Below are positions 55,993-64,000 of a stretch of 64,000 nucleotides of DNA, in pieces. Each line of letters starts with the position of its first letter. Positions within the stretch are counted from its first letter, which is position 1. Source of the stretch: a bacterium (lineage in GTDB: Bacteria; UBA8248; JACPRG01; G963555815); the NCBI GenBank assembly GCA_965218795.1, contig OZ244653.1, positions 4,288,001-4,352,000 of the forward strand, read 5' to 3'. A program made the translations under genes and the position numbers. Below the pieces are notes generated by a model. It had not been told where the DNA came from, did no database searches, and saw nothing but the letters and a program-made list of their open reading frames with translations.

Positions 55993-56126
55993 CAGAGCCC
56001 CTTCCCGGCCCCCGGGGCCGGTCCCGCGGATCAAAAAATCATTGTGTATGCCTGCCGACACTGGCAAAGCAGGCGCAGAGCGGTGGGCTTGCCTCGCCTG
56101 CTTCAGCAGACGGGTTGCGCGGGGTG

Positions 56127-56277
56127 TGGATTCCCGCTTCCGCGGGAATGACAGTTTGAGCCGATGCCCTGGATTCCCGCTGGGCCTGCCCCCGTGTCTG
56201 CATTCGGCAGGGGCGGAAATGACGGTCAGAGTCACGCCGCCCTCCCAACCCGTCATTCCCGCGGAAGCGGGAATCCA
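56127..56277. repeat. Inverted pair of 26-bp dRS3/RPE-like palindromic repeats with a third, interrupted copy between them
   Basis: TGGATTCCCGCTTCCGCGGGAATGAC (56127-56152) and its exact reverse complement (56252-56277); core ATTCCC-N8-GGGAAT. Confidence 0.85.
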
Positions 56278-56537
56278 GAACCCAGGGGCAGGCGGCGCGG
56301 GCGCGAGAACGAGGCACCCCCCCTTCCCCCCTGACAGGGGGGCTGAAGCGGCGTATCCGCTCACGCCGTAGATGCGTCGGGTGCGAGGAATCGCCGACCG
56401 GCGTCCGCATCGTCCTTCCGCTTCACTCAAAGGCGCGGACGGCGGCGGAACGCGGGCATTCGGAGGCATTTCGGATCGGGCGACGCCACGAGCGTAGACA
56501 ATACAACCGGGCAGGATGATAGGAGTCTGAGAGGCGC

Positions 56538-57104
56538 ATGGAGGCACCGCTTACGATGGATCCAATATCCAAAGACATTGCAGACAAATTTTGTGAGCTG
56601 TGCAACTGGGTATACGAGAGCTGGGTGACGCATAAGTTACTATTTGATGAGAATGAAAATAAGGAAAACAATATCGGAAAGTGTAAATATATCACCAGCC
56701 GTTTGTCCATCATTACTCAGGAATATTGCTTACTGCAAATAGCCAAGCTGCATGACCCCGCGCTACAGGGAAACTCTCGGAATCTCACGGTCGATTACAT
56801 GGTGCGATCCGGAGAGTGGGGCGAACGAAAGAACGAAATAGACAGGATTCACGCCAAACTTCTGGAATTGTGGAACTGTATCAAGCCTGCACGCAATAAG
56901 ATCTTGACCCACAATGATTTGGAGACGTACAGGGCTGACGAGGCCCTCGGGTCTTTTCCTGAGGGCGCGGACGATGAGTACTTTGAGGCCCTTCAAGACT
57001 TGGTGAACGAAGTGCACGAGAAATGGGTCGGCGGCCCTTATCCTTTCAACGATCTTGCCCAAAACGATGTTTTAAAGTTTCTCGCCTTGCTTGAACGGGT
57101 CTGA
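56538..57104 (+). CDS. HEPN-domain protein (AbiU2-like), putative RNase
   Basis: LLQIAKLHDP...NLT and RNKILTH (Rx5H) motifs; alpha-helical; lower GC than the core genes. Confidence 0.65.
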   Translation: MEAPLTMDPISKDIADKFCELCNWVYESWVTHKLLFDENENKENNIGKCKYITSRLSIITQEYCLLQIAKLHDPALQGNSRNLTVDYMVRSGEWGERKNEIDRIHAKLLELWNCIKPARNKILTHNDLETYRADEALGSFPEGADDEYFEALQDLVNEVHEKWVGGPYPFNDLAQNDVLKFLALLERV

Positions 57105-57314: not shown

Positions 57315-57902
57315 ATGGCTCGTCCGAGGATGAGGACGCTCGATATTAAAGCCCTCAAAGAAGCTCTCGAAGATGAAGAAATCGTATTTCGCCAGATTGA
57401 GTTTGCAATCAAGCTCCTTTTTTACTGCGAGCTAGGGAAAATTTGTCCCTCCGAGTTTGATGGCTATGATTGTGTCGTTTCCCTGGAACAGGGAACCATT
57501 GGATTTTCGCCAGGGAACTTCAGCGATGCGGATAAAATCAACAAGGCGGCCGCAATTTCGGTCTTGCTAGCTTTCGCTGGATCCGCTCTTGGCCTTGACC
57601 AAGCCTGTGAAGCTGCCGGCATCAAACCATGCCCTGAATCCAGATGTCAGAGGACAAAACTCCGCACGCTCGTTTATATGATCCGGTGCGCGTTTGCCTA
57701 CTCGCTAGCCGCTCCAAAGTGGGAGATCAAGGGAAAATACAAGGTCGAGATGACATTTGAACTTGCCCGCGAGAAAATCACAATTGATCTGGGTAAGCTA
57801 GATGGTGAGCATTTCGATTTCCCCCAGATTGGGGGTCATCATATTTGGTTTGAAATTCGACACTATCTGGTTTTAGAGTTGCGTAAAATTGCAAATAATT
57901 AG
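57315..57902 (+). CDS. Hypothetical protein, HEPN-like with degenerate motif
   Basis: 195-aa ORF; LVYMIRCAFAY where a HEPN domain would have R-x-A-F-A-H. Confidence 0.55.
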   Translation: MARPRMRTLDIKALKEALEDEEIVFRQIEFAIKLLFYCELGKICPSEFDGYDCVVSLEQGTIGFSPGNFSDADKINKAAAISVLLAFAGSALGLDQACEAAGIKPCPESRCQRTKLRTLVYMIRCAFAYSLAAPKWEIKGKYKVEMTFELAREKITIDLGKLDGEHFDFPQIGGHHIWFEIRHYLVLELRKIANN

Positions 57903-58147: not shown

Positions 58148-59233
58148 CTAGTACCTTGTAACAGAGACTTTGCTAGTGGTGATTCGCCGTGAGCCATCAG
58201 TATAGCTCCACTTGATGGGTTTGGGTTTCTTGTTGCACTGTCGAATATAGCGCATCAGTTTTCGAGCCAAATCAGGAACCGAAGTGAAGACGCCGCGGGC
58301 AATGACGTCGCGTTGGATTTTTGCGAACCAGATTTCGACCTGATTCAACCAAGAGGAATAAGTTGGGGTGAAATGCAAATGCACGCGCGGGTGAGCGTCA
58401 AGAAACTGTCGCACGCGGCGGCTCTTATGAGCCGACAGATTGTCTGCGATGATGTGAATTTCACGCCGCTTGGGTTGTCTGGCCACGATGCCAGAAAGGA
58501 AAGCCACAAAGGCCTCGCTGGTGTGCCTCGCTGCGGTCTTGCCGATGACCTCGCCGGTCTTTGTATTCAGGGCCGCATACAGCGAGAGCGTTCCGTGCCG
58601 GTAATACTCGAAACCGTGACGCTCGGCGCGACCCGGAGAAAGCGGCAACACGGGATCGAATCGGTCCAAGGCCTGAATGGCGGTTTTTTCATCCACACAG
58701 AAAACGGCGGCGTGTTGCGGCGGGTTGACATAGAGGCCAATGATATCGGCCGCCTTCTTCTCAAAGTCCGGATCATTCGATGCCATGTAACGTTGAATGC
58801 GGTGGGGTTGCAGACCCGCACGTTTCCAAACCCGGGCCACCATCATGTGGTGGGTGCCCAACTGCCGCGCCAGCTTGCGACTACTCCAGTGCGTCGATCC
58901 GTCCGGTGGTCGGCGCCTGGTCCAGTCCAGAATCCGAGCCTCCAGCCGGGGGGTGCGCTTGTGAACCGCTCGACCGCAATGTCTGGAATACAAGCCGGCC
59001 AGTCCCTCTTGTTGGAACCGGGTCTTCCATCGGCTCACATACCGGGCATCGCAGCCCACGGCGCGCTGGATCCTCAAATAAGACTCCCCGGCATCGAGCA
59101 TCAGAATGACTTGGGCTCGTCGGACGTCTTCGGACCGCAGCACGCGCGAACGGGATCGCCGTTGCAGTTCTTCTCTTTCATCGGAAGTCAGCTGAATGGG
59201 GGTGTTTGGCATGCATGATACTGTACCAAACAT
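58148..59233 (-). CDS. IS630 transposase
   Basis: HTH region, THWS, CVDEK, YYRHGT, IADN..H and SWLNQVE (DDE intact). Confidence 0.93.
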   Translation of the reverse strand: MFGTVSCMPNTPIQLTSDEREELQRRSRSRVLRSEDVRRAQVILMLDAGESYLRIQRAVGCDARYVSRWKTRFQQEGLAGLYSRHCGRAVHKRTPRLEARILDWTRRRPPDGSTHWSSRKLARQLGTHHMMVARVWKRAGLQPHRIQRYMASNDPDFEKKAADIIGLYVNPPQHAAVFCVDEKTAIQALDRFDPVLPLSPGRAERHGFEYYRHGTLSLYAALNTKTGEVIGKTAARHTSEAFVAFLSGIVARQPKRREIHIIADNLSAHKSRRVRQFLDAHPRVHLHFTPTYSSWLNQVEIWFAKIQRDVIARGVFTSVPDLARKLMRYIRQCNKKPKPIKWSYTDGSRRITTSKVSVTRY

Positions 59234-59525: not shown

Positions 59526-59771
59526 ATGCGGAAGGTCGCCAAGGTATTCATGACGGGCCGCTCACAGGCCGTTCGCTTGCCGAAAGAGTTCCGGTTCAAG
59601 TGCGATGAGGTGCGGATCAGGAAAGAGGGCGACGCTGTCATCCTCGAGCCCCTGTCGGGGGATTGGTCATGGCTCGATGCCATAGAGCGTCCGATTGATG
59701 AGGATTTCTTGAAAGCCGTGGCCGAGAAGCCCGGCGACCAATCCCGCCCGGAGCTGGACTTCTTCGAGTGA
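59526..59771 (+). CDS. vapB: VapB antitoxin (AbrB/SpoVT fold)
   Basis: AKVFMTGRSQAVRLPKEFRF motif; GTGA overlap with vapC. Confidence 0.92.
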   Translation: MRKVAKVFMTGRSQAVRLPKEFRFKCDEVRIRKEGDAVILEPLSGDWSWLDAIERPIDEDFLKAVAEKPGDQSRPELDFFE

Positions 59772-60160
59772 AATTCCTGCTGGACACGAATGCCCTGATC
59801 GCGTTGCTCAAAGGTGATCAAACGTTCATCGACCGCCTTCGCGCCCATCAGCCGTCCGACTTCGGCATGTCCTCGATCACGCATCACGAACTGTGCTTCG
59901 GCGCATACAAGAGCAGGCGGGCAGAAGCCAACTTGCGCAACATCCGCTCCCTGGAATTCGAGGTGCTGCCGATTTCCAAAACCGACGCCGAACGTGCGGG
60001 AGAAATCCGCGCCGCGTTGGGGGTCAAGGGAACACCCATCGGCCCCTATGACGTGCTGGTCGCGGGGCAGGCAGTCGCCCGCTCCCTTACATTGATCACG
60101 CACAACGTCGGCGAGTTTGCGCGGGTGGAGGGTCTGGCGTTCGAGGACTGGCTGGCGTGA
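59768..60160 (+). CDS. vapC: VapC PIN-domain toxin
   Basis: FLLDTN, EL..G, IGPYD..VAG.A and THNVGEF.RV.GL motifs. Confidence 0.93.
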   Translation: MKFLLDTNALIALLKGDQTFIDRLRAHQPSDFGMSSITHHELCFGAYKSRRAEANLRNIRSLEFEVLPISKTDAERAGEIRAALGVKGTPIGPYDVLVAGQAVARSLTLITHNVGEFARVEGLAFEDWLA

Positions 60161-60304
60161 GGGTATGTCACGCAGAGAGGTAAATACACAAAGTTCAATA
60201 AGAAATTTCTTTATTGAAAGTTAGCGCGTAAATGTGAATGAGGATGTTGGGGGGACCGCATCTGGGGGTACCGGGGGACGAGTGTATTGAGAGCGGGGCG
60301 GCCT

Positions 60305-60313
60305 TGGTATAAT
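60305..60313 (+). promoter_or_regulatory. Consensus extended -10 promoter upstream of the acidic protein gene
   Basis: TG-G-TATAAT about 35 nt before ATG 60349; AGGAG RBS. Confidence 0.6.
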
Positions 60314-60348
60314 ATTCCGTCTCTCTCATAATGTGTAGGAGCAATGGA

Positions 60349-61461
60349 ATGGCTAGAGAGAAATATACTCGGCATGTTATCCCCGAGGTTGCCGCTCCTG
60401 ATTCAAGTTGGCTACTTTCAGATCATCATGATACTGAAGTCGAGGATGAAGTAGCCGCTGATCCCTGGAATATCAATATCGCGGACAAAGAAAAATCAAA
60501 CGGAACCACAGACGATACTTCGGATGCGTCCAATCATACACAGACAGCGGATACCACTAGTGGCAATCTTCAATTTGGAACCATATTGCCGGGGCTTGGC
60601 GGCCAGATCAATCTTTTCTCCAGCGACGACATAGGTCTCCAGATGGGTCTTTTTCCCGATGCGGAGAAATGGCCGCCGGACGACCCGATTGATGCTACCG
60701 ATCAGGACTGGCTGCATGGAGAATTTCTCGATGAGACAGTCGATACAGTCAATGACGGATTCGAAGGGTTCGTGCTTGACGAGTCTCCAGACGAAAAGTT
60801 CGAAGACGACTTCGATATCGTCGAGTTCGACGAGGGCGCCCAACAGCCACCTTGGGAAATTGAACCCGAGGAAGAAGCCCAAGAGTTACGCCGTGCTCGC
60901 GAGAAGGCGGCGACCATTGCACTCCTGCTTGATTTCAGAAACACCCGCGAGCGAGATAACGCCATATCGTATTTGGAGGAATTGTTCGGGCAGATGACAC
61001 ATTCGGCGACATTCCGGGCAATTGAGAGGGTGGCGGAGGGGATAGACCTCGACACGCTGAAAGCCATGGTAGAAGTGCGGCGGATCTGGATGCGGCGAAC
61101 GGACTGGTGGTGGGGAATACTCTACGAACCAGGTATCTTCAGACGTGGCAACTTGGCGTTTACATGGGCCACCACGCGCCTCGTGTGTCTTGCACGAAGG
61201 GATCATCCTCCAGAGTCAATGATCGATGAAGAGTGGTTCGACGAATGGTTGCGGTTGCCATATGGCGCTCCCAACTACAGCAGCTTTGCCTCATACATTG
61301 AAGAGAAGATCCTTTCCCATGACGCCGAACTTCTTAACGAGGGACTAAGGCATTACGAACGCGGCGATGGCTATGTGGAAACAGGTGATGGCTTCGACTG
61401 GTACCGCCGCATCCCAGACCCCGAGGCGGTGAAAAGTATAAGACAACTCCCGCATCATTAA
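60349..61461 (+). CDS. Hypothetical protein: acidic low-complexity N-half, Trp-rich helical C-half
   Basis: Long ORF with promoter and RBS; no family recognised. Confidence 0.75.
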   Translation: MAREKYTRHVIPEVAAPDSSWLLSDHHDTEVEDEVAADPWNINIADKEKSNGTTDDTSDASNHTQTADTTSGNLQFGTILPGLGGQINLFSSDDIGLQMGLFPDAEKWPPDDPIDATDQDWLHGEFLDETVDTVNDGFEGFVLDESPDEKFEDDFDIVEFDEGAQQPPWEIEPEEEAQELRRAREKAATIALLLDFRNTRERDNAISYLEELFGQMTHSATFRAIERVAEGIDLDTLKAMVEVRRIWMRRTDWWWGILYEPGIFRRGNLAFTWATTRLVCLARRDHPPESMIDEEWFDEWLRLPYGAPNYSSFASYIEEKILSHDAELLNEGLRHYERGDGYVETGDGFDWYRRIPDPEAVKSIRQLPHH

Positions 61462-61572
61462 CGCCCTATGGTGATCGGCCCAGCGTTATCACTAGCAGGA
61501 ATTTCGACTCGATAACATGGTTTAACTACTGGATAGACAAATATCAGAAGCTTGAAGGAAAAGGACGAAAAG

Positions 61573-64000
61573 ATGTCAAGTGAGGTTCTATTTCCAGTCA
61601 CAGGATGCTGGGTTAAGCGTCGCTGCACCAAGGGGCCATTGGGGCGGGTAGAAGAAGTGCACCGCAACGAATCAGCATCAAATCAGGTAAAGGTAAATTG
61701 GGGACAAGGCGAGCCTGAATGGTTGGTTGTCGATGAATTGGAGCCGGGATTTCAGCGCAAATGGACCGTTCAGGACGTGCCGGTCTCCGCAACGCGTAAG
61801 TCCCTGGGGCAAGGTCGCGTCGTAGGCAAACGCGAATTGGGCGGCCGCCACCAGCTTCTCGTGCAACTCGACGATAACGGACGCTCGGTCTGGCTGCCCT
61901 ACGAAAACCTGCGCCGGATTAAAGATGTGCGCATGCGCTATCAACGCACGGAGACAGGTACCGATAACCATGCCGAAAGGTTCCGCCTTCGTCTGCTGGC
62001 GCACGCTCTCGAAAACTGGAACCACCTCACCGGCTCGCTAGATCGGCTTGAGGTCGATCCGTTGCCGCATCAAATCCAGCTCGTCCACCGGATACTGAGT
62101 TCCGGTAACTACAATTGGCTGATTGCCGATGACGTTGGGTTGGGCAAGACCATCGAAGTCGGGCTGTTGCTTGCGGCTCTCAAGCGCAAGGGACAGGCGC
62201 GGCGCGTATTGATAGTTTCACCCGCCGGTCTCGTGCGTCAATGGCAAGATGAACTCTCCTACAAGTTCGCTCAAGAAGCCCAAATCTACGGGCGCGATTT
62301 CACCATCAACAAGCCGGAGCACTGGAAGTTATACGACCAAGTCATCGTCTCCATCGATCTCGCCAAGCGAGAGAACCACATGCAGGCGTTCCGAGAAGCG
62401 GGAGGATGGGACATCATCGTGTTTGATGAGGGGCACAAACTTACGCGACATGCGAGCGGAGAACGGGCGGATCGATACAAACTGGCGGAAATGCTAAGGT
62501 CGATGGCGGACGCATTTCTCCTCCTCAGCGGCACCCCGCACCAAGGCTATACGGATCGTTTCATCGCGATTCTTGAACTCGTGCGGCCTGATCTAAGCCC
62601 GAGAATACACACTCTCGAGGCCAACCCTGAAATTGTCGGCGATATGATTTTGCGGAACCGCAAGAGCGAGGTCACCGACGCCGACGGAGGGTTTATCTTC
62701 AAGGGGCAGCAAATCCATAGAGTTGCAGTGGAACCATCCGATCAAACGAAAGAATTCCAACGGCGTTTGAACAAGTACCTAAGGCACGGCTACCGGGCGG
62801 GAGAGCAAATGGGGGACGCTGGGCGCGCCATTGGTTTCGTCATGACAACCTACAGGAAGCTCTCCTCATCAAGCATCGCGGCGATCGATCGCGGGCTTAG
62901 GCTTCGTCTTGATCGCCTATTGCAGAGCGTGAATGGACACGACGAGAACGATCTGGCAGTTGATCTGACGTTCGGTGATGATGAACTTACCGAAGGCGGG
63001 GACGATCAGGACGATCTGGCATCGAGTTCGACGAGAGCGACGGAATTTTTTGATCATGAAAAAGAGGTGATCGAAGGTCTGCTTGCGGACGCGAAGGCCG
63101 TACGGGATAACGACGAGAAACTACGGATATTTCTTGACCAGGTCGTGGCCCCGATCGTGAGCGAAGGCAAAAACCTTCTGGTCTTCACCGAATACCGGGC
63201 AACGCAATCCTACCTTAAGGAGGCGCTCGAAGAGCGATTCTCCGATATTGGTGAAGTCGTGCTGATAAATGGTTCGATGAAGCTGGAGGAGAAGCTGGAG
63301 GCAATCGAAGCATTCAACCAACCCGCGCGATTCATGATTTCGACGGAGGCCGGTGGCGAGGGAATCAACCTTCACGAGTCATGTCACGTGATGGTGAACT
63401 ACGACCTGCCATGGAACCCGGCGCGGCTGGTCCAGCGTATCGGAAGGCTATACCGCTACGGGCAGAGCGAAACCGTCGTCGTGTTCAATCTCCACGCCCG
63501 CGATAGCTTCGATAACAAGGCCATTGATTTGATGATGGATCGCGTCATCCAGATCGCGCGGGACATGGCGCCCGTGGGCGCAGAGTACAATGATCGGCTT
63601 CATGCCGAAATTCTCGGCGAGGTGCTGGATAATCTCGATTTCGCATCCATCCTCCAATCGGCAACCGCGATGCAAATCGAATATACACATGAGCAAATTG
63701 ATGAAGCGTTAGCACGGGCGGAACGTGCGAAGCTCTTGCAGGATGAGATTTTCACGCACGTGGCTGGTTACGACCCGAATGCTCTGAGCGGCACCCTCGG
63801 TTTCACCATGCAACACGTCGACGTGTTCATCCGCGGAATGTTGCCAACTGTCGGGATCAAACTTGAAACGACTTTATACGACGGCGCGGTTAAGGAAATC
63901 CGGCTGCCCGAAACGCTTCGGGGCCAGTTCCCGGAGTTTGGGCAACGGACCGTGGTGAGGGTTACGACAGACCGCCGCCTCGCGCAGCGTCTTCGTGATG
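61573..64000 (+). CDS. SNF2/RapA-like SF2 helicase (partial, runs off window end)
   Basis: Not in ORF track. Open frame from ATG 61573 with DPLPHQ, IADDVGLGKT, DEGH, LSGTPHQG, STEAGGEGINL and YDLPWNPARLVQRIGR. Confidence 0.92.
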   Translation, partial: MSSEVLFPVTGCWVKRRCTKGPLGRVEEVHRNESASNQVKVNWGQGEPEWLVVDELEPGFQRKWTVQDVPVSATRKSLGQGRVVGKRELGGRHQLLVQLDDNGRSVWLPYENLRRIKDVRMRYQRTETGTDNHAERFRLRLLAHALENWNHLTGSLDRLEVDPLPHQIQLVHRILSSGNYNWLIADDVGLGKTIEVGLLLAALKRKGQARRVLIVSPAGLVRQWQDELSYKFAQEAQIYGRDFTINKPEHWKLYDQVIVSIDLAKRENHMQAFREAGGWDIIVFDEGHKLTRHASGERADRYKLAEMLRSMADAFLLLSGTPHQGYTDRFIAILELVRPDLSPRIHTLEANPEIVGDMILRNRKSEVTDADGGFIFKGQQIHRVAVEPSDQTKEFQRRLNKYLRHGYRAGEQMGDAGRAIGFVMTTYRKLSSSSIAAIDRGLRLRLDRLLQSVNGHDENDLAVDLTFGDDELTEGGDDQDDLASSSTRATEFFDHEKEVIEGLLADAKAVRDNDEKLRIFLDQVVAPIVSEGKNLLVFTEYRATQSYLKEALEERFSDIGEVVLINGSMKLEEKLEAIEAFNQPARFMISTEAGGEGINLHESCHVMVNYDLPWNPARLVQRIGRLYRYGQSETVVVFNLHARDSFDNKAIDLMMDRVIQIARDMAPVGAEYNDRLHAEILGEVLDNLDFASILQSATAMQIEYTHEQIDEALARAERAKLLQDEIFTHVAGYDPNALSGTLGFTMQHVDVFIRGMLPTVGIKLETTLYDGAVKEIRLPETLRGQFPEFGQRTVVRVTTDRRLAQRLRD

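Follow-up and report, generated by a model that had tools for sequence, protein, structure and literature searches.

A conserved two-gene module of an SNF2-family ATPase and an acidic partner protein, possibly acting against phage or plasmid DNA

Do a gene for an SNF2-family ATPase and the gene in front of it represent the beginning of a longer defence operon, or do they form a complete system, and what could such a small system do? This question is raised by the end of a stretch of bacterial DNA of 64,000 nucleotides (the window, G000:C1:4288001-4352000, with position 1 as its first letter), where a protein of no known family is encoded upstream of a large helicase-like motor. An earlier note, made from the letters alone, had read the two genes as the 5' part of a multi-gene defence operon, in view of the neighbouring HEPN and toxin-antitoxin genes. 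Comparison with related loci shows that the following two genes, the partner and the helicase, are a fixed, conserved two-gene module.

60349..61461, plus strand: partner gene, 370 amino acids (aa), without known family; relatives in 269 clusters at 50% identity (E<=0.001)
61573..64000, plus strand, continuing to window-equivalent position 64407 (G000:C1:4352407): SNF2-family ATPase gene (the helicase), 944 aa

Pairing of the partner and the helicase

The linkage was followed from both sides, with 26 loci collected through the partner and 12 loci found through the helicase without use of the partner. At all 12 helicase-first loci, the partner domain lies in the open reading frame (ORF) directly upstream. 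Ten of these partners were detected by a profile that does not contain them, and two Deinococcus partners are linked transitively via a Nitrosococcus partner (E 7e-15 and 4e-14). Two of the 12 loci lie at an insertion site that other Latescibacterota loci also use and do not count as independent, and a further helicase locus at a contig end (L037) was left out. From the partner side, the helicase is directly downstream at 17 of 26 loci and at 16 of the 19 with an intact core, the latter including five contigs of one fusion and a locus (L027) with the first 78 helicase residues and then a stop near the contig end. In a set of 72,556 plasmids, a full-length helicase relative occurs in three records and the partner domain in exactly these three, and the Nitrosococcus partner matches only the Deinococcus plasmids there. 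As a control, the partner domain was found at none of 78 other SNF2 loci (flanks of at least 1.5 kb), a 79th locus being a member of the partner-linked clade. The homologues of the acidic protein are tightly linked to one helicase clade, a linkage that the earlier note had proposed to check.

Additionally, the two proteins diverge together. Their pairwise identities co-vary with a Mantel r of 0.92 over 22 loci and 0.81 over 14 close loci, and 0 of 2000 permutations were as high. The two genes overlap or abut at four loci (L003, L018, L019, L030), and in five metagenome contigs (L006-L010) they are joined into an in-frame 1285-aa fusion (L007:4275-8132), with partner residue ~333 joined to helicase residue ~38. 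The fusion represents a single event, because the junction is identical in all five contigs.

At the window locus the whole module measures about 4.1 kb, and its two genes have a guanine-cytosine (GC) content of 52% and 56% against 60.5% for the genome. The helicase ATG at 61573 follows the partner stop codon after 111 nt, as read earlier. The helicase ends 407 nt beyond the window edge, and the next genes, presumably lspA and ileS judging from their sequences, are convergent on the opposite strand. Since opposite-strand genes follow the helicase, the pair is a two-gene unit rather than the opening part of a longer operon, and this part of the earlier proposal has to be given up. The start of the unit carries two short signals.

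60305..60313, plus strand: perfect extended -10 motif (TGnTATAAT; here TGgTATAAT), putative promoter, 35 nt upstream of the start codon
60337..60341, plus strand: Shine-Dalgarno-like AGGAG, 7 nt upstream of ATG 60349

The dedicated extended -10 motif named in the earlier note is present and perfect. It occurs in 25 copies in the whole 5.17-Mb genome, and 0.0005 copies are expected within the 188-nt upstream gap; a consensus promoter scanner did not list TGgTATAAT at 60305-60313. An alternative in-frame ATG is present at 60331, and the AGGAG has its 7-nt spacing to the ATG at 60349.

The motor and its partner

61609..61917, plus strand: two beta-barrels, predicted at residues 13-58 and 65-115, that resemble Tudor/SH3 domains in position and secondary structure
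62125..62151, plus strand: Walker A ADDVGLGKT (residues 185-193), invariant in 73 of 73 relatives
62425..62436, plus strand: Walker B DEGH (residues 285-288)
63433..63462, plus strand: helicase motif VI QRIGRLYRYG (residues 621-630)

All SNF2 motifs that were checked in the helicase (Q, Walker A, Ia, Walker B, III, IV, V, Va and VI) are present, in agreement with the earlier reading, and Pfam detects no nuclease domain. The structural model, with a predicted local distance difference test score (pLDDT) of 78, places two beta-barrels before the motor and two alpha+beta domains after it, and this predicted layout matches that of RapA, namely an N-terminal domain, SNF2 core, spacer and C-terminal domain. 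The top structural matches are RapA entries, aligned through to the C-terminus, with the second barrel aligned to the RapA N-terminal domain (8t0l_F; model 64-944 to chain 53-964). RapA (HepA), the RNA-polymerase-recycling Swi2/Snf2 ATPase of E. coli (PDB 6BOG, 8T0L), resembles the window helicase in length (968 against 944 aa) and in predicted domain order, from the two barrels to the two alpha+beta C-terminal domains. The window helicase is unlike RapA in its separate clade, fixed partner gene, patchy spread and differing residues at the RNA polymerase contact positions, and its N- and C-terminal domains show no sequence-level match to those of RapA; for the N-terminal region, Pfam gives no match to Tudor_RapA, and the hhalign probability is 0.8%. 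In the C-terminal domain, the polar motifs Q857-x-D859-Q860 and K930-H931-P932-N933 are invariant in 72-73 of 73 relatives (L001:4138-4371, residues 856-933, past the window edge), which is a possible ligand or partner site.

The contacts of RapA with RNA polymerase offer a closer comparison. Of 13 contacting residues, as listed in the accessible part of PMC8501970, 11 could be placed via the alignment and two (E14 and D744) were unmappable. None of the 11 is identical in the window helicase and two are replaced conservatively (L229 by I, I540 by L), while all four contact arginines align with E there and the positions are mostly non-basic across the family. Judged from the alignment, this counts against RapA's mode of RNA polymerase binding, and not against all binding.

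The motor core, in fact, lies nearer to defence helicases. Among the motors of PADLOC and NCBIfam, BrxHII, DrmD and HmaA come closest, with PADLOC scores of 338 bits for BrxHI|BrxHII (best), 287 for DrmD and 260 for HmaA, and hhalign scores the core at 529 against BREX-3 BrxHII (38% identity) and 217 against RapA. The helicase falls under the equivalog cut-off for RapA (162.6 against 576 bits, NCBIfam NF003426) and under that for DrmD (315.8 against 610 bits, NF038317). Motor-core trees were made with FastTree (90 rows) and, quickly, with IQ-TREE (37 of those 90 rows). In both, the helicases linked to the partner fall into a single clade (support 1.0 and 99). This clade is separate from RapA, DrmD and BrxHII and is placed loosely near BrxHII (SH-aLRT 84, IQ-TREE). 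Clustering with housekeeping RapA, completion of DISARM or another named system, and missing linkage between the acidic protein's homologues and the helicase, the outcomes that the earlier note had set against its own idea, are all contradicted. The sister of the clade in both trees is a Deinococcus plasmid SNF2 helicase (L224:1-8664) overlapping a giant upstream hypothetical gene (~2,460 aa); this, too, is a RapA-like module of two genes, with another partner. The host genome also has two more RapA-like SNF2 paralogues outside the clade (G000:C1:4658347-4660146 and 2614516-2616471; frames of 1210 and 1062 aa).

The class 1 DISARM operon contains DrmD with DrmA/DrmB, a methyltransferase and DrmC. 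None of DrmA/DrmB, methyltransferase and DrmC is in the window two-gene unit, and none is conserved at the 15 independent sites of the module that were compared. HmaA has a PD-(D/E)xK nuclease fused to the C-terminal side of its Snf2 helicase; the window helicase matches the HmaA profile (1176 positions) no further than position 701, and there are two genes only, against three in hmaABC. BREX-3 genes (BrxC ATPase, BrxXI methyltransferase, PglZ) are not linked at the window locus, for which a true BREX-3 locus (L223) served as comparison, nor conserved at the 15 sites. The neighbourhoods of the 15 sites, the window among them, also lack the ARMADA gene set, as defined in the accessible part of PMC12458937. 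By its gene content, the module completes no named system among DISARM, BREX, Hma and ARMADA. BrxHII of BREX type 3 and the helicases of BREX-related DUF499 systems share with the window motor the closest motor core and a RapA-like layout with no active nuclease. BrxHII, however, works with BrxC, a methyltransferase and PglZ, whereas the partner here is unrelated, and according to the available portion of PMC12839542 it has the RapA-type layout with a single Tudor domain, plus an REase-like domain that is inactive, against two Tudor domains in RapA and two predicted barrels in the window helicase. DrmD (DISARM class 1), ArmA (ARMADA), HmaA (Hma) and IetH (ietHAS) are likewise anti-phage SNF2 motors of the same subfamily; they are accompanied by methyltransferases, YprA helicases or a protease-ATPase pair, or carry a nuclease fused to the motor (HmaA), whereas the window motor appears to have a small non-enzymatic partner only.

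60349..60828, plus strand: acidic, predicted-disordered N-terminal region of the partner (~residues 1-160), with conserved short motifs W21, D25 and DPW38-40; length varies among relatives
60823..61359, plus strand: DFDxxAxQxPW motif (residues 159-169), then a predicted all-helical Trp-rich core (~175-337) starting with a basic helix

The partner has no family match in Pfam, NCBIfam, PADLOC or PHROGs, in line with the earlier assessment, and fold searches with its model gave no clear match. A word-based search yields 21 relatives, and the 269 clusters came from a profile search. The N-terminus is D/E-rich and disordered as described before, over ~160-175 aa rather than the ~190 given then. Residues 1-177 hold 26.6% D/E and 7 K/R (pI 4.36), and residues 90-177 reach 35% D/E. 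In the AlphaFold model (21-row alignment, mean pLDDT 61), pLDDT is mostly below 50 at ~1-160 and 85-96 across most of residues 175-300, with a helical core at 175-337. The Trp-rich C-half is confirmed, with the stretches RRIWMRRTDWWW and DEEWFDEWL.

The DFDxxAxQxPW motif and the helical core are the part kept in all linked partners. The best-kept positions among 124 aligned members are mostly hydrophobic or small (A187, F213, A224, L237, L243, W247, W273, W296, W300, F313), and the first core helix (residues 180-187) averages 2.9 K/R per 8 residues. Because the six most distant partners share just seven invariant columns (A, A, E, R, G, W, F), with no conserved catalytic residues, the core is probably an adaptor rather than an enzyme. 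Its comparison with sigma-70 region 2 (AbiRa-like) gave an hhalign probability of 0.15%, within column-shuffled controls, from a shallow 8-sequence profile. The acidic tail is common among the members and not universal. Of the 114 members whose N-terminal part reaches at least 80 aa, 112 are net-acidic there (median 24% D/E, length 80-506 aa), and the DPW motif occurs in 74 of 124. Three Gammaproteobacterial forms have 33-37 D/E in the 100 residues preceding the core, one of them with a weak N-terminal TPR match. In a contig from a related strain, the acidic region is lengthened by an in-frame insertion of ~72 nt.

Spread and genomic setting

The distribution of the module is patchy, an accessory or mobile pattern. 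The partner is present in 2 of 61 genomes around the host, and the helicase in 0.5-4% of the genomes of four other groups, namely Gammaproteobacteria (2 of 401), Alphaproteobacteria (4 of 401), Acidobacteriota (3 of 351) and the Latescibacterota group (6 of 168); these counts include the centre genomes, and the first-look filter may miss some carriers. The pair is scattered over at least five phyla.

Restriction or named anti-phage genes were scored within ~5.5 kb on each side of the 15 sites. They occur at the window (AbiU2), L018 (Type ISP), L051 (DUF1156, DUF499), L029 (Dsr1, HNH), and L056 and L057, where methylase genes like those of type III restriction-modification (RM) systems and ResIII genes are near the module. 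With PIN toxins the number of sites becomes 8 of 15, and with AAA_14-DUF4143 genes also 10 of 15; a p-value was computed just for 9 of 15 (0.011). The defence context is moderate. No RM or mobility gene is conserved with the module across the 15 sites. After the module at L056 and L057, related UvrD-like helicases with a similar N-terminus were seen (L056:11300-13435, L057:5996-8074), and control region L065:2763-13487 turned out by chance to hold a Druantia-like cluster (DruA match, large DEAD/MZB helicase).

Of the genes upstream in the window, the HEPN and toxin-antitoxin genes do not recur as conserved neighbours of the module elsewhere.

59526-60160, plus strand: VapBC-type pair (MazE-like antitoxin, PIN toxin), immediately preceding the module
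58148-59233, minus strand: transposase (DDE_3) of what we take to be the IS630 family
57315-57902, plus strand: 195-aa ORF, GC 47%, adjoining the HEPN gene; possible small defence gene
56538-57104, plus strand: AbiU2-type HEPN protein (PF18734, E 8.6e-11), GC 47%
56039-56444: short repeated palindromic elements

The transposase was recently active, because six more genome copies share 99.7-100% identity with it. The 195-aa ORF has no match in Pfam, NCBIfam, PADLOC or PHROG. Two related-strain runs (contigs, weak) cover the module and leave the AbiU2 region uncovered, which is consistent with the HEPN gene being outside the unit. The palindromic elements have copies elsewhere in the genome, and thousands of short contig matches pile up on them.

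A possible role and its rivals

The reading that we prefer, with a probability of about 0.45, is a self-contained, nuclease-free two-gene module acting against phage or plasmid DNA, in which the partner gates or targets the motor. It builds on observations at these loci: two genes, a promoter motif, motor motifs, pairing, co-divergence, one fusion, patchy spread and a distinct clade. SNF2 translocases use ATP to evict proteins from their substrates, and the present motor is an SNF2 ATPase predicted to translocate on double-stranded DNA, with the domain layout of RapA and no nuclease. Both genes would be co-expressed from the extended -10 promoter. The Trp-rich helical core of the partner would dock on the motor or load it, non-catalytically, and the acidic tail may represent a polyanionic DNA mimic masking the partner's basic first helix or the DNA-binding groove of the motor. 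A basic invader protein or invader DNA would then displace the tail, and the freed motor would use ATP to clear the incoming DNA of replication or transcription complexes or of protective coat proteins. As a result, invader DNA could be stalled or exposed to co-resident restriction enzymes. A bolder form, tentative and rather doubtful, is that of a RapA-shaped SNF2 remodeller armed by a DNA-mimicking acidic cofactor of new helical fold, clearing invading DNA of proteins, perhaps of RNA polymerase or phage DNA-coating proteins, which would represent a new nuclease-free immunity class.

Several points weigh against a defence module of this kind. Neither a nuclease nor another known effector is encoded in the module. 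Defence genes at 6 of 15 sites against 1 of 11 control regions (Druantia) do not differ significantly (one-sided Fisher p=0.093), and the scan behind them covered 88 of 166 called non-helicase ORFs, picked by eye by the author's choice, without partners or shared-site repeats, against 89 of 119 control ORFs, with two regions dropped and one dropped in part. Several sites (L021, L050, L058) are bare insertions among metabolic genes; at L021:8791-15166, the module sits inside a respiratory operon between genes for the NADH-dehydrogenase 49-kDa and NADHdh subunits. Partner and helicase trees have 7 of 19 splits in common, with a short partner alignment, and the fusion may be a chance deletion. 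Three Gammaproteobacterial genomes carry tail-less partner cores (L024:10001-10594, L025:10001-10582, L026:10001-10582) with no match to the helicase N-terminal profile anywhere in the genome, and six partner fragments stand without helicase (L012-L014, L016, L017 and L028, the last in a Gammaproteobacterial genome with the fragment only). In the two Deinococcus partners (1300-1315 aa), a coiled-coil-like and Pro/Ala-rich linker replaces the acidic tail. Since these forms carry a coiled coil and Pro-rich region instead, the tail would be a tunable add-on; of the earlier idea of a DNA mimic or phage sensor, the mimic is retained in our scheme, and an essential sensor in all members is not. The three tail-less cores represent a remnant or domesticated form, and two of them are directly upstream of a short-chain dehydrogenase-like gene.

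The other explanations differ in what the motor would be for. It could belong to an accessory pair that clears or recycles RNA polymerase for a stress or housekeeping benefit, the acidic tail displacing nucleic acid from trapped polymerase and the motor removing the enzyme, like delta (RpoE) and HelD of B. subtilis with a RapA-type motor in place of HelD. Delta, in the available part of PMC7749165, likewise joins a folded domain to an acidic disordered tail and is paired with an NTPase. The likeness is a functional analogy only; in the window pair the tail is N-terminal and the motor is SNF2. We regard such a pair as unlikely, given that no RapA contact residue is identical and the four arginines align with E, that the core is nearer to BrxHII in a clade apart from RapA, and that presence in 0.5-4% of a group is unlike that of a core transcription factor. 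A helper module would instead remodel protein-DNA complexes for its carrier island or plasmid, or boost neighbouring restriction systems, with no anti-phage activity of its own. The absence of an own effector domain suits this idea, as do the plasmid loci beside replication-initiator and transposase genes (L030, L031), the nearby integrase at L051 and the RM genes adjoining at 4 sites. It is nevertheless improbable in our view, as no RM or mobility gene is kept with the module, which is solitary at several chromosomal sites, and as it was not found in phage records, with no clade member among the 80 viral loci kept.

In a toxin-antitoxin or abortive-infection pair, the motor would be toxic by stripping host DNA-bound proteins, and the acidic, labile partner would neutralise it until infection. 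The upstream gene product is acidic and disordered, and all 12 helicase loci have the partner whereas three orphan partners lack the helicase, the asymmetry expected of toxin and antitoxin; the orphan cores without a tail and the existence of an in-frame fusion speak against it and leave it very unlikely. Least credible is the helicase as part of DISARM, BREX-3, BR/DUF499, Hma or ARMADA with the acidic gene as a passenger. The PADLOC scores and the loose BrxHII grouping point that way, but the score below the DrmD cut-off, the clade of its own (support 99-100), the strict linkage of the partner and the lack of a methyltransferase, PglZ, YprA/DrmAB or ATPase gene conserved beside the helicase leave named-system membership largely refuted.

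A literature search found no description of the pair. ARMADA, BREX/BR, Hma, AbiR, ietHAS and SMRD all need further enzymes, according to the accessible portions of PMC12458937, PMC12839542, PMC7159879, PMC13064643, PMC13069673, PMC11232893 and 10.1101/2024.12.27.630466. The two-gene module is apparently undescribed and is built on a known kind of motor.

The RapA-like SNF2 motors of anti-phage systems sit within operons of three to six genes, in which the job of the motor is hard to isolate. One small, apparently non-enzymatic partner within ~4.1 kb represents an unusually simple construct for learning how such a motor works when no nuclease or methyltransferase accompanies it, and for asking whether it is gated by an acidic disordered tail. 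It also gives a testable role to an unannotated family of ~270 clusters whose fold has no clear match. If the immunity reading is true, the module would be a minimal two-gene system showing what the RapA-like helicases of DISARM, BREX-3, ARMADA and Hma do.

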